Shown here: piece after piece, positions 3,679 through 57,521 of the stretch
Layout: each line of letters begins with the position of its first letter
Numbering within the stretch: position 1 is the first letter of the stretch
Source of the DNA: Eledone cirrhosa
Lineage: Eukaryota
Direction: 5' to 3'
DNA length: 57,521 nt
Assembly: GCA_964016885.1 (NCBI GenBank)
Contig: CAXHJY010001581.1
Span: forward strand, 1 to 57,521
The notes under the pieces: model-generated
What the model was told of the DNA's origin: nothing
Seen by the model: only the letters and a program-made list of their open reading frames with translations
Database searches by the model: none
Made by a program: the position numbers and the translations under genes

Positions 3679-3760
3679 TATTTATTAAAATAACAGATTA
3701 AAGTTTAAGCAAAGAATCTTTGGATTTTAGTCTTCAATTTTATTATTATTACTATTATTA
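3679..3760. mobile_element. Micro two-ended insertion of PLE-terminus family F
   Basis: 3679-3718 matches 48735-48774. 3722-3755 is the reverse complement of 48648-48680. So an inverted short end is joined to a long end. Confidence 0.7.
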
Positions 3761-4381
3761 TTATTATTATTATTATATAAATATGTATATATATGTATAT
3801 ATATATAGGTGTGTATGTATATATATGTATGTATATATATATATGTGCATGTATATATATATATATATGTGTATGTATATATATATATATATGTGTATGT
3901 ATATATATGTATATATATGTGTATGTATATATATGTATATATATGTGTATGTATATATATGTATATATATATATATGTGTATGTATATATATGTATATAT
4001 ATATATATATGTGTGTATGTATATATATGTATGTATATATATATATATATATCTGTGTATGTATATATATATGTATATATATATGTATATATATATATTT
4101 ATATATATGTATATATATGTATATATATGAATATGTATATATATGTGTATATATAAATATATGTATATGTATATATATGTCTATATATATATATATAAAT
4201 ATGTATATATATTTACATGTATATATATATATCTATATATATATATATATATATATCTGTGTATGTATATATATGTATATATGTATATGTATATATATGT
4301 ATGTGTATATATATATATATGTATATGTATATATATATATGTATATATATGTATATATATGTATATGTATATGTATATGTA

Positions 4382-5442
4382 TGTGTTGGGCCCACTTCTC
4401 ATCATCATCTATATTAATGACATCACTGACATCATCAAACACAGCAACATTAAAATTTTCGCTGATGATTCCAAGCTCCAAAAGGTCATCAATGGCGTGG
4501 ATGACCGGATAAGCCTTCAATCAGACCTACTGGCTGTTACCCAATGGGCAGAAAAGAACAACATGTTACTGAACGAAGACAAATTCGAACTGATCCACTT
4601 TGGAAAAGAGGATGCTCTGAAACTCCCGTACTCCCTTCCCTCCGGGGAAACTCTCGTGGCATCTAACAACATCAGAGACTTGGGAGTAACCGTGGACAGC
4701 AACATAAGCTGGACCACGCATATAAGCAGCAAAGTTGACATGGCCCGCAGAATGTGTTCCTGGATCCTCAGAACCTTCCAGTCGAGAGATTCCCGCACCA
4801 TTATCCTTCTCTTATCTACTTTTGCCCGACCACACCTTGAATACTGTTGTCCACTGTGGTCTCCCCACACCAAACAAAGTATCATGAAACTTGAAGCTCC
4901 TCAAAGGGCAATCACGAAAAAGATAGATGGCATGTCAGACCTTGACTACTGGGGTCGATTAGAAAACCTGAAACTTTACTCACTCCAACGTCGCCGTGAG
5001 CGTTATATTATCTGCATGATGTGGAAAATGTTCCATCATCACTGCCCAAATGATGTTGGCATCGCCTTCAAGATACACCCAAGGCTTGGGCCCCGTGCTA
5101 TCCGTCCCATTCAAAAATCTAAATCGCAACTCATAACAACAATACGGCACAATTATTTCACCTTAATCGGCCCTGCTCTCTTCAACATCACACCAGGACA
5201 CGTCAAAACAGAAACTGACCACACAAAATTCAAGAAGTCTTTGGACAAATTCCTCCAAGTAATCCCGGACAAACCACCCACACCCGGATATGTCTCCGCA
5301 AACCGTAATTCTCTTCTCGAATGGGCCATGGTGCCCAAATCCAGAATTGAAAGACTTCGCCAGGTGGTGCTATTAAGTTAGACATGGCCTGGGCCAATAC
5401 TGGCCAAAACATTTCAAAGTTATTCAAAGTTATTCAAAGTTA
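4382..5442 (+). mobile_element. 5'-truncated non-LTR retrotransposon (CR1/L2-group LINE), RT C-terminal part
   Basis: VLGPLL..IYIND, FADDSK, RDLGV, RPHLEYC and [11 protein letters not shown] motifs; stop at 5381; short 3' UTR with a GGCCA/TGGCC hairpin and a (TTCAAAGTTA)3 tail. Confidence 0.93.
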
Positions 5443-5555
5443 TGTATATATATGTATAAGTATATATATATATATAAATATATGTATATATATATGTATA
5501 TATATGTATATATATATATATATCTGTGTATGTATATATATGTATATATATATAC

Positions 5556-52770: not shown

Positions 52771-54848
52771 ATATATACTTATATATATATATATATATAT
52801 ATACTTATATATATATATATATACTTATATATATATATATATATATACTTTATATATATTTATACTTATATATATATATATATACTTTATATATATATAT
52901 TTATACTTATATATATATATATATATATATATATATATTTATACTTATATATATATATATATATATATATATATTTATACTTATATATATATATATATAT
53001 ATATATATATATATATATACTTTATATATATATATATATATATATATATATATATATATATATACTTTATATATATATATATATATACTTTATATATATA
53101 TATATATATATATATATATATATATATACTTTATATATATATATATATATACTTTATATATATATATATATATATATATATATATACACTTTATATATAT
53201 ATATATATATACTTTATATATATATATATATATATATATATATATATACACTTTATATATATATATATATATATATATATATATATATACTTTATATATA
53301 TATATATATATATATATATATACTTTATATATATATATATATATATATATATACTTTATATATATATATATATATATATATATATATATATACTTTATAT
53401 ATATATATATATATATATATATATATACTTTATATATATATATATATATATATACTTTATATATATATATATATATATATATACTTTATATATATACTTT
53501 ATATATATATATATATATATACTTTATATATATATATATATATATACTTTATATATATATATATATATATATACTTTATATATATATATATATATACTTT
53601 ATATATATATATATATATATATACTTTATATATATATATATATATATACTTTATATATATATATATATTATATATATATATACTCATATATATATATATA
53701 TTTATACTTATATATATATATATACTTTATATATATATATATATATATATTTATACTTATATATATATATATACTTTATATATATATATATATATATATA
53801 TATATATATATATATATTATATATATATATACTTATATATATATATATATACATATATATATATATACTTATATATATATATACTTATATATATATATAC
53901 TTATATATATATATACTTATATATATATATACTTATATTTATATATATATATATACTTATATTTATATATATATACTTATATATATATATATATACATAT
54001 ATATATATATATACATATATATATATATACTTATATATACATATATATATATATATATATATACTTATATATACATATATATATATATATATAGTTATAC
54101 ACACACATATATATATATATGTATACACACACCCATATATATATATATATATACTTACACACACATATATATACACTCACACACACACATATATATATAT
54201 ATATACTTACGCACACACACACACACACACATATATATATATACTTACACATACATATATATATACATACATATATATATATATACATCCAAAATATATT
54301 ATTCTTATCTTACCATCTCATATAATAAGTCTCTTGTGAAGTGAGACTTATTATAAGTTCCATTTAATTACTCTGACCTCTGCGACACTTCTCTCTATGT
54401 CTTTCCCCCACATAAATCTACTGGAACCTTCTCTAGCACATATGGTTATGCAAGATTACAGCACCAGCATTATAAAAAATCTACCTCCGAAAACAGAAGA
54501 GTTACACAGCACCATTGCTCGAACACTCACAAACTTTGAGTTATCTTTTCAACTGTTAACATATTTCTTGTGATTTATTAATTGAAATATATATACATCA
54601 TACATCACACATATATATATATATATATATATATATACATGTATATATGTACACACACACACACATATATATATATATATACACGTGTATATATATATAT
54701 ATATATATATATATAAACACATACATATATCTATATACACACACATATACATACATACACACACACACAAATATACATACATACACACACACACACACCC
54801 ATATATATATATATATATATATATATATATATATATATATATATATAT

Positions 54849-55245
54849 ATTCTATTTATATGTTGTGCTATGTTCATTGTAGTAGAGTAATAAAATTTCA
54901 TAGTATGTCTGTTAAAAATAGAGTGGTATCTATGGGATTTAGGAAAACATTTATCTAGTTCTTTGAAAAATAGTTTTGATACAGGTGTTTTAACCCCTAA
55001 CGAGAATGGGGGAGAGAACCAAATAATATTTCCAGTTCTAGTTCTTTTGTTTCTTTTTCTATTTAAGTTAAATTGTTTAATACTATTATTATAGTGAATC
55101 TTAGGAAGATTTTGCATGTTATTGTTATCAAAGTATTTAATTTTATTCATGTAGCCAGCTCTATGTGAGGCATCATTGTAATATTCTGGCTTATTATCAA
55201 AATATTTTTATTAGCTGAAATGCGTGAAATTCGTTGCTGGATACT
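54849..55245 (-). pseudogene. Internal fragment of a further C-clade PLE (RT thumb/linker)
   Basis: [24 protein letters not shown] and [36 protein letters not shown] are homologous to family C. Confidence 0.8.
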
Positions 55246-55746
55246 ATATAGATATATACATATATATATATATATATATATATATTTATACATATATATA
55301 TATATACATATATATATATATATATCAAATATATATACATATATATATATATATCAAATATATATATATATATATATATATAATCAATATATATATATAT
55401 ATCAATATATATATATCAATATATATATATATATATATATATCAATATATATATATATATATATATATCAATATATATATATATATATATATATCAATAT
55501 ATATATATATATATATATATATATATATATATATCAATATATATATATATATATATATATCAATATATATATATATATATATATCAATATATATATATAT
55601 ATATATATATATATATATATATATTTATATATATCAATATATATATATATATACATATATATATCAATACATATATATATATACATATACATATATATAT
55701 ACATATATATATATACATGTCAATATATATATATATACATATATAC

Positions 55747-57521
55747 ATTGTTATACTTTGGGAGGGTCATGTTGCCAATAAGAAACACACGCACCAGTTG
55801 CTTTCACTTCAATTTAATTTAATATATATTTATAAATTTACAAATTTATAAATTTCTGGTTGGTTGGTTGGTTCCACAACCAGATAGTTGTTTATATATA
55901 TATATAGTCATAGTTCTTTCGTCACACACTCTGTGACCTCTTCAGTGACTGGGGATTTCTTTCTTCGTTTCTGTGCCTTTCCTTTCTTCTATCCTACGCC
56001 ATTTTGTTTGTGCGTGGGTTGCGTGCTCAGTTTGCGCATGCGCCACATCCGGGTGTCTGTGTGTGTTTGTGTTCATTTTTCTATTTTTCTATTTATATTT
56101 GTTTGTTTATTTATTTATTTATTGTTGGTTGGTTGTTTGTTCTATGTGTGTGTGTGTTTTCATTTTGTCTTGTGTGTGTTTTCATTTTGTGTGTGTTTTC
56201 AATTGTAAGTTGTTTGTTCTATGTGTGTGTGTGTTTTCATTTTGTCCTTAATTGTAAGTTGTGATGTTGCTGTTCCACTCATATTTTCTATTTAATTTTG
56301 GTTTTAATTCTTTTATGCTTACTGCCTCTGTAATTTGCCTAAACATTGCGTCTTTCTTGTGTGTGGATTCTATTTTTATTTCTATGCTCTCTAATTTACC
56401 CCTGTGTTCTATCTTAGCATGTTGGTAGAGCACAGATGATTCTTTACTATCTTGGAGGTCTCGCCAGTGTTCATTTATTCGTTCCCTATACTACGAGCTG
56501 TCTCACCTATGTACACTATATTTTTGTTTCTACATTGTCCTTCAGTACATCTTATGCTATATACTACATTTCTAGTTTTACAGTTAATATGGGGGCTTAT
56601 TTTACAGGTTATACATTTCTTATCTATACATGAGGGTCTTTGGAACGGGTATGTCTTGCTAATAAGACCCTCATGTATAGATAAGAAATGTATAACCTGT
56701 AAAATAAGCCCCCATATTAACTGTAAAACTAGAAATGTAGTATATAGCATAAGATGTACTGAAGGACAATGTAGAAACAAAAATATAGTGTACATAGGTG
56801 AGACAGCTCGTAGTATAGGGGAACGAATAAATGAACACTGGCGAGACCTCCAAGATAGTAAAGAATCATCTGTGCTCTACCAACATGCTAAGATAGAACA
56901 CAGGGGTAAATTAGAGAGCATAGAAATAAAAATAGAATCCACACACAAGAAAGACGCAATGTTTAGGCAAATTACAGAGGCAGTAAGCATAAAAGAATTA
57001 AAACCAAAATTAAATAGAAAATATGAGTGGAACAGCAACATCACAACTTACAATTAAGGACAAAATGAAAACACACACACACATAGAACAAACAACTTAC
57101 AATTGAAAACACACACAAAATGAAAACACACACAAGACAAAATGAAAACACACACACACATAGAACAAACAACCAACCAACAATAAATAAATAAATAAAC
57201 AAACAAATATAAATAGAAAAATAGAAAAATGAACACAAACACACACAGACACCCGGATGTGGCGCATGCGCAAACTGAGCACGCAACCCACGCACAAACA
57301 AAATGGCGTAGGATAGAAGAAAGGAAAGGCACAGAAACGAAGAAAGAAATCCCCAGTCACTGAAGAGGTCACAGAGTGTGTGACGAAAGAACTATGACTA
57401 TATATATATATAAACAACTATCTGGTTGTGGAACCAACCAACCAACCAGAAATTTATAAATTTGTAAATTTATAAATATATATTAAATTAAATTGAAGTG
57501 AAAGCAACTGGTGCGTGTGTT
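55747..57521. mobile_element. Fold-back insertion of PLE family B 3' part (GIY-YIG plus pLTR); right arm runs off the window
   Basis: The arms meet at an AAG microhomology (56664-56666); the left arm stops at the short end (..AAGTATAACAAT). Confidence 0.92.

Follow-up and report, generated by a model that had tools for sequence, protein, structure and literature searches.

Near-strict pairing of one long and one short 3′ end in inverted Penelope-like element insertions of Eledone cirrhosa

Results

Penelope-like elements in a TA-rich contig

The window analyzed here is an entire contig (CAXHJY010001581.1) of the 3.0-Gb Eledone cirrhosa assembly, 57,521 nucleotides (nt) long and ending with the contig at position 57521. 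Its G+C content is 25%, and the bulk of it is (TA)n. Self-comparison of the window after masking revealed seven repeated families of Penelope-like elements (PLEs), designated A to F and H, between TA arrays (Table 1). Reading frames with reverse transcriptase (RT) and GIY-YIG domains lie inside the window for families A, B, and C. An earlier note on this DNA had described the insertions as a TA array, an inverted 3′ end, a junction, a direct 3′ end, and a second TA array. This layout is real in the window, the positions given hold within a few bases, and endpoints recur between copies (family A at 6563 and 19650; B at 15242 and 52013 and, for the other end type, at 15563 and 55747; D at 24038 and 52768 and at ~1780, 24470, and 52445). 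Within a family, ends fall at a short site or, farther downstream, at a long site, and we refer to the segment between the two as the tail. The large family C insertion, for which the layout had been called probable, was confirmed as a long+short copy with a tail of 137 nt. Five window ends have no same-family partner: A at 19650, C at 30975, E at 23868, F at 48646, and B at 52013.

Table 1. Features of the PLE families in the window
Feature	Position	Strand	Description
Family D arm	1197..1780	+	Short-site end; 5′ side enters a 60-bp tandem array and then runs off the contig start
F-micro	3679..3760	.	Inverted short end (3679-3718) plus direct last ~40 nt of the tail (long end)
Family A inverted arm	6563..7583	-	Long end at 6563
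Family A direct arm	7581..11707	+	Exactly one unit; starts and stops at the middle site
Family A reading frame	7561..11145	+	1194 amino acids stop to stop; RT (YVDD), C-terminal GIY-YIG, CX4CxxC linker
B-mini	15241..15563	.	Inverted long end (15241/15242) plus direct short end
Family A arm	19650..20773	-	Long end; no partner arm found
A2	21765..22367	.	Inverted short-type end with internal deletion plus direct middle-type end; two sites ~50 nt apart; inner TA array 22115-22158
Family E one-armed copy	23655..23868	+	Long end; starts at the common 5′ stop point of E
D mini	24038..24470	.	Inverted long end plus direct short end
H mini	27081..27474	.	Inverted long end plus direct short end
F mini	28826..29082	.	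Inverted long end plus direct short end
Family C arm	30975..31170	-	Short end; no partner found
E-micro	33965..34090	.	Inverted long end plus direct short end
E-micro mirror copy	34728..34853	.	100% identical over 110 nt
Family C two-armed insertion	37647..47723	.	Long-ended inverted arm (to ~42171) and short-ended direct arm (from ~42195); encodes RT and GIY-YIG, CxCX5C linker
F/B hybrid	48646..52013	.	Long-ended inverted F arm (48646-49918) joined to B sequence: inverted 47 nt followed by a long-ended direct arm (49957-52013)
D mini	52445..52768	.	Short-ended inverted arm, itself short, plus long-ended direct arm; putative hammerhead-like core (CUGAUGA...GAAA)
Family B two-armed insertion	55747..57521	.	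Short-ended inverted arm (to 56666); direct arm truncated where the contig stops

Insertions end at fixed sites

Exact core patterns of each family were searched across the genome and gave between 2,596 (H, fewest) and 35,706 (F, most) matches, with zero matches to the reversed-pattern control in every search. The genome sample consisted of loci returned by these searches and 160 further stretches, mostly at minus-then-plus neighbours, which were picked from coordinates only and blind to end type. All sampled loci lie on one contig (C1), and merging them gave 276 stretches totalling 1.09 Mb. The sample is enriched for two-armed pairs and, in family A, for ends of the long and middle types. To call the ends, we aligned them against real read-through copies, in which the end runs on into the next unit (family E had no such copy in the sample). 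The calls carry an uncertainty of up to 5 nt, since the terminal bases of most sites match (TA)n. Short and long windows for each family, and a middle window for A, were set after inspection of the histograms, whose modes are single positions.

Endpoints proved to be fixed rather than continuous: 559 of 578 terminal ends fall inside these windows. Among 82 family B ends, for instance, 40 lie at position 37 and 33 at position 97. Measured against real read-through copies except in E, the tails are 40 nt (H), 58 nt (A), 60 nt (B), 66 nt (E), 83 nt (D), 88 nt (F), and 137 nt (C) long. The claim that the two ends differ by a family-specific amount thus holds, except for the figure of ~15 nt proposed for family A. 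That gap separates the long from the middle site; A has three sites, at 65 (short), 108-110 (middle), and 123 (long) from the core motif, and its short site is homologous to that of B.

At most of the short and long sites the terminal bases are TAT/ATA-like and agree with the target, 2 to 5 nt being shared with (TA)n. The tails contain further TA tracts, some of which exceed those at the real sites in length; none is used (in F, 0 of 89 ends lie inside the tail), so microhomology alone does not choose the sites. We found no common RNA fold around both sites (z-scores of −2.0 to +0.3 with one copy per family, a weak test for a small conserved hairpin).

A short end is paired with a long end in nearly all two-armed copies

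Among 201 two-armed candidates, 17 with an unclassified end were set aside. As many as 179 of the 184 classifiable pairs combine a short end with a long (or, in A, middle) end, against one half expected (P of about 1e-46). The proportion was 26/26 in A, 28/30 in B, 24/25 in C, 29/30 in D, 30/31 in E, 22/22 in F, and 20/20 in H. All 26 pairs in A are short plus long or middle; the long+middle A copy of the window (6563-11707) is therefore atypical, with 0/26 counterparts. Three of the five exceptions hold inner TA arrays and may be separate insertions. The same combination was seen at all 33 ends whose partner arm is too short to contain the core (33/33, ~28 of them independent).

A genome-wide count was made for family D miniatures of the commonest size. 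It returned 1,417 long+short matches (727 and 690 in the two orientations), where independence would give ~65, together with 24 long+long and 44 short+short, at most 68 like-with-like among 1,485 matches. When 10 long+long and 10 short+short loci were inspected, 5 and 3, respectively, proved genuine; the flanks of 4 among these 8 are mirrored, suggesting that they were duplicated later. Like-with-like pairs, which by the criterion of the earlier note would have told against the rule had they been as common as long+short ones, make up 2 to 5%, and 95 to 97% of two-armed copies carry the tail on one side only.

Pairing had also been held to be invariable, and this did not survive. Besides the five partnerless window ends, 111 of 588 sampled non-read-through ends have no partner; 32 others lie too near the edge of a stretch to judge. 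Part of the 111 are tracing failures at nested insertions. One-armed copies are nevertheless common, so pairing is not obligate, and they are probably commoner genome-wide, since the sample is enriched for pairs.

Arms, junctions, and 5′ stop points

Arm lengths range from ~20 nt to >5 kb. In 140 pairs with a clean junction, the long-ended arm reached further 5′ in 41, the short-ended arm in 47, and the two were equal in 52 (P = 0.59), with C and D leaning toward a further-reaching short-ended arm (5:1 and 12:1). In those 47 pairs neither arm is contained in the other, so one final arm is not a simple copy of the other. Fifteen long arms consist of tail only. Junction overlap is −4 to +5 nt in 110 of the 140, mostly blunt or 1 to 5 nt. 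Junction sequences and arm lengths vary from copy to copy, even within one size class.

In C, D, E, and F, many arms share a single 5′ stop point particular to the family; that of E is located ~30 nt downstream of a TATA-like box. A capped RNA end would yield a cap-templated extra G, as is the case for LINE-1 (L1). Among truncated C and D arms, 13 of the 38 carry a nongenomic G ahead of the stop point (P of 0.0005 to 0.03), and three insertions have it on both arms. The extra G and the shared stop point are suggestive of cDNA synthesis running off the capped end of an RNA. Contigs from four public sequencing runs of three studies also have loose ends at this 5′ stop point of D and, in most of the runs, near the short site. 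Three long arms begin 1 to 12 nt past the upstream unit's long site, as would be seen if bound protein brought synthesis to a halt there.

Divergence between the arms of an insertion is usually 1 to 2%, reaching 18%, and some arms are 99.6 to 100% identical. For 99 of 117 pairs, the distance between the two arms is smaller than that to the median other copy, and both arms therefore usually come from one source. Of 98 pairs checked for subfamily, 9 were flagged as having arms from different subfamilies; most of these are accounted for by a run of A/T in E and by insertions that had been duplicated (two pairs), and no clear two-source insertion was found among the 98. Likewise, no clean pre-insertion (empty) site was present among the sampled sequence.

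The rule spans at least two PLE clades

Longer genomic copies of D, E, F, and H encode RT followed by a C-terminal GIY-YIG domain, as judged from motifs and tblastn. Pfam gave weak matches in family B only (E value of 1e-4), the RT and GIY-YIG assignments of the other families resting on motifs and tblastn; the family A frame had no Pfam match at an E value of ≤0.001. The A protein is 65 to 70% identical to the B proteins that match RVT_1 and GIY-YIG. RT identity is likewise 65 to 70% between A and B, ~48% for D and F versus C, and ~24% for H and E versus A or B.

Families C, D, and F have a CxCX5C linker and lack the CCHH cysteine pair inside GIY-YIG, and D and F carry an RWR motif. In these respects and in their (TA)n targets they resemble the Hydra clade as outlined in PMC8557442, to which they would belong by motif; the Hydra section of that article does not describe tails of 83 to 137 nt such as theirs. 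A, B, and E clearly possess a CX2-5CxxC linker and a cysteine pair inside the C-terminal GIY-YIG, whereas H has the cysteine pair with a reduced linker; these four appear to be of Neptune/Nematis type. The rule had been put forward for unrelated families: it does hold in seven, and these probably represent at least two PLE clades, not seven unrelated lineages.

Read-through copies with tandem or partial-tandem pseudo-long terminal repeats (pLTRs) occur in A, B, C, D, F, and H, and none of E was found in the genome sample. A motif scan placed putative hammerhead cores (CUGANGA...GAAA) at a fixed position in A, B, D, and H. In E and F, CAGAAGA replaces CUGANGA in a hammerhead-like core variant (52/90 and 58/91 copies, respectively), and for C the scan gave no complete core. 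The best 150 of 855 Rfam matches over the whole window were TA-driven microRNA matches only. The tail overlaps the start of the open reading frame (ORF) in A, B, and H and appears to lie upstream of it in C, D, and F.

Discussion

Relation to published PLEs

The architecture described here is known; it is a regular version of the published PLE signature in new families. The earlier note was not aware of any description of an obligate long+short pairing across unrelated families; this claim to novelty is too strong, since the ingredients are in print. A tail at only one end of inverted insertions is documented for several PLE clades (PMC8557442, Fig. 2 legend; Craig et al. 2021), and a tail optionally present on one of the inverted pLTRs, with self-priming as the proposed origin, is reported in the pLTR passages of PMC3846280 (Arkhipova et al. 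2013). As far as those passages of the two articles go, the published endonuclease-bearing PLEs with inverted pLTRs share with ours an inverted, 5′-truncated copy next to a direct one, outward-facing 3′ ends, (TA)n targets, an extension often on one end only and on either side, and a tail overlapping the ORF start (here A, B, and H). The published tail is described as optional, 30 to 40 bp, and without counts, whereas here it is 40 to 137 nt, one-sided in 95 to 97% of two-armed copies, and independent of arm length; the apparent position of the tail upstream of the ORF start in C, D, and F also sets these families apart.

Further precedent comes from the Poseidon PLE PAc, studied in vitro (Frangieh et al. 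2024, PMC11167929). According to its results text, RT starts internally at two sites, one at each boundary of the tail, cleavage and extension affect both strands of the target, and a dimer is predicted. PAc resembles the Eledone families in its AT-rich target and in two sites that delimit the tail, which here are probable start sites, and the hammerhead near its junction would correspond to the putative cores noted above; the genomic ends are consistent with PAc-type initiation at both tail boundaries. The PAc start sites are called nonhomologous to the target, whereas most sites here share 2 to 5 nt with (TA)n. The same results text nowhere says that each target end has a site of its own or that an inverted repeat arises in this way, its supplementary text has no mention of tail, inverted, or initiation, and the tail goes unmentioned in passages of a 2026 retrozyme preprint. 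Among the papers listed by full-text searches on PLE ends, none, judged from its title or the first lines of its abstract, gives counts of the pairing or puts forward double priming of a coupled kind; the searches did not extend to subscription articles, among them those that first described the tail.

A proposed twin-priming model

The sequences show end sites that are fixed, long+short pairing that is nearly strict, arms either of which may be the longer, and junctions that are particular to each insertion. We consider it probable that these are de novo insertions arising by twin target-primed synthesis, in which both ends of a cut (TA)n target each prime a cDNA at a fixed site of their own. 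One end would prime at the upstream short site of the element RNA and the other at the downstream long site. A single ribonucleoprotein, probably containing a protein dimer, would hold the RNA of the pLTR-ORF junction asymmetrically, such that its two active sites use different start sites. The two cDNAs would then extend independently until drop-off or the RNA 5′ end, giving rise to abundant fixed-size miniatures; end joining of the cDNA 3′ ends, where the element 5′ ends meet, followed by fill-in, would yield a head-to-head inverted repeat, and failure of one side would leave a one-armed copy. The earlier note had likewise proposed two joined cDNAs primed at two internal sites, and this fits the data best, although double priming, dimer coupling, cap run-off, and the joining route are all steps that we infer. 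PLEs are the closest relatives of telomerase RT. For a more specific version we see an even chance: coupled, asymmetric double reverse transcription by one dimer on one RNA, with 2 to 5 nt of primer-template pairing as in telomerase, two overlapping minus-strand cDNAs, and no conventional second-strand step. If true, coupled double reverse transcription would operate generally in the PLE clades and would account at once for inverted pLTRs, the one-sided tail, and fixed-size miniatures.

Several points weigh against twin synthesis. [quoted passage not shown] The TAT/ATA-like bases at both sites would also fit DNA cleavage at AT-rich sites, and the arm-containment argument is compatible with a longer precursor folding back and undergoing trimming afterwards. 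The signal from the extra G is modest, and an RNA start at the stop points is deduced from DNA. A copy's own arm is strictly nearest in only 43 of 117 pairs (with 30 ties), family F giving no signal. True like-with-like pairs exist (2/30 in B), as do the long+middle A copy of the window and cross-family long+long hybrids. Finally, 5 of 166 flank repeats, versus ~1 in shuffled pairs, were candidates for target-site duplications, none of them convincing; such duplications are unreadable in TA arrays.

Alternative explanations

The main rival, which we regard as unlikely and which the data weaken, is fold-back of a cDNA (by self-priming, possibly on an antisense template) past both sites, after which the endonuclease would trim the arms at the short and long sites on integration. 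Both sites are indeed AT-rich, the arms usually share variants, and some junctions are palindromic. Nonetheless, the great majority of junctions have the near-blunt overlaps given above and not long hairpins, and initiation in vitro maps to the two tail boundaries (results text of PMC11167929). Moreover, the 15 tail-only long arms and the 47 noncontained pairs would require an extra trimming step, and the insertions with an extra G on both arms are simpler with two run-offs.

It is much less probable that the architecture is inherited, with a few master inverted copies being transcribed and reinserted whole. The near-equal size of many C, D, and E miniatures and the variants shared between arms would fit such copies, but this reading is largely refuted by the copy-to-copy variation within one size class, by the span of arm lengths, and by the recurrence of the rule in seven families. 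Lower still do we rate independent ends, meaning a random choice of site at each end, or loss of tails after insertion, an internal TAT slipping against the adjacent TA array. That most sites have microhomology to (TA)n agrees with this idea, which could account for the middle site of A and the rare exceptions; as a general rule it is refuted, because about half of all pairs should then be like-with-like, against 5/184 and at most 68/1,485 found, and because longer internal TA tracts go unused. Fold-back chimeras of sequencing or assembly, brought to mind by the near-identical arms of some copies and by a window that is a small, repeat-rich contig, may explain single mirrored exceptions but almost certainly not the rule, given that arms usually differ, that the ends are asymmetric and family specific on chromosome-scale contigs, and that the D stop point recurs in the public runs.

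L1 twin priming, attributed to Ostertag and Kazazian in 2001, reportedly lets the second target strand prime a second cDNA internally, with microhomology joining producing an inversion. The PLE process would work like it but differs from the L1 process: the second L1 site is variable and the cDNAs derive from different RNA segments, whereas here both sites are fixed and each cDNA would share the greater part of its length with the other. In most pairs the arms do overlap, and only the tail-only arms fit the nonoverlapping L1 type.

How PLEs build tandem and inverted ends is presented as an open problem in PMC8557442. What the present counts add is the strictness of the pairing across at least two clades, tails of 40 to 137 nt, the lack of any dependence of the tail on arm length, and 5′ stop points common to many arms that resemble capped RNA starts. 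They sharpen "tail often at one end" into a prediction, namely, that the two target ends of one product use different start sites. For annotators, the rule defines precisely where copies stop in families whose ends number from thousands to tens of thousands genome-wide, and small hairpin repeats can be read as insertion stubs, with no separate class resembling miniature inverted-repeat transposable elements.

Additional observations

One clear cross-family hybrid was found among 144 unpaired genomic ends, with two long ends head-to-head. In it (C1 13680349-13683017, L089 region), a C arm stopping at the common 5′ point is joined to an A arm. Cross-family hybrids could reflect either two complexes at one break or a deletion fusing neighbours.

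The two mirrored E-micro copies of the window surround a TA array (33965-34853) and suggest a secondary inverted duplication; the mirrored like-with-like loci L402, L407, L409, and L412 resemble them. Tandem runs of identical A miniatures split by TA arrays were seen at L030-L031 (C1 42149600-42150600) and L079 and are likely the result of local amplification after insertion.

The 60-bp tandem array at window positions 1-1310 (22 copies, 96% matches) is an expanded segment from inside family D. The CAGAAGA variant occurs in the window at 23724-23745 (E) and, on the minus strand, at 48790-48810 (F). An Asn-rich stretch in the family A frame (8155-8750) recalls the N-rich inserts of rotifer Penelope ORFs mentioned in PMC3846280.

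Tiny ends or hairpins of unlisted families lie between TA arrays at 17109-17140, 19554-19588, 23476-23538, 26770-26830, 29635-29669, and 47782-47922. Finally, a family of non-long terminal repeat RT elements (RVT_1, E value of 5e-31) occupies 4389-5443, 12245-12443, 12876-15031, and 30291-30871. Its copies also sit in TA arrays, are one-ended, and end in TTCAAAGTTA repeats, providing a natural control for the two-armed rule.

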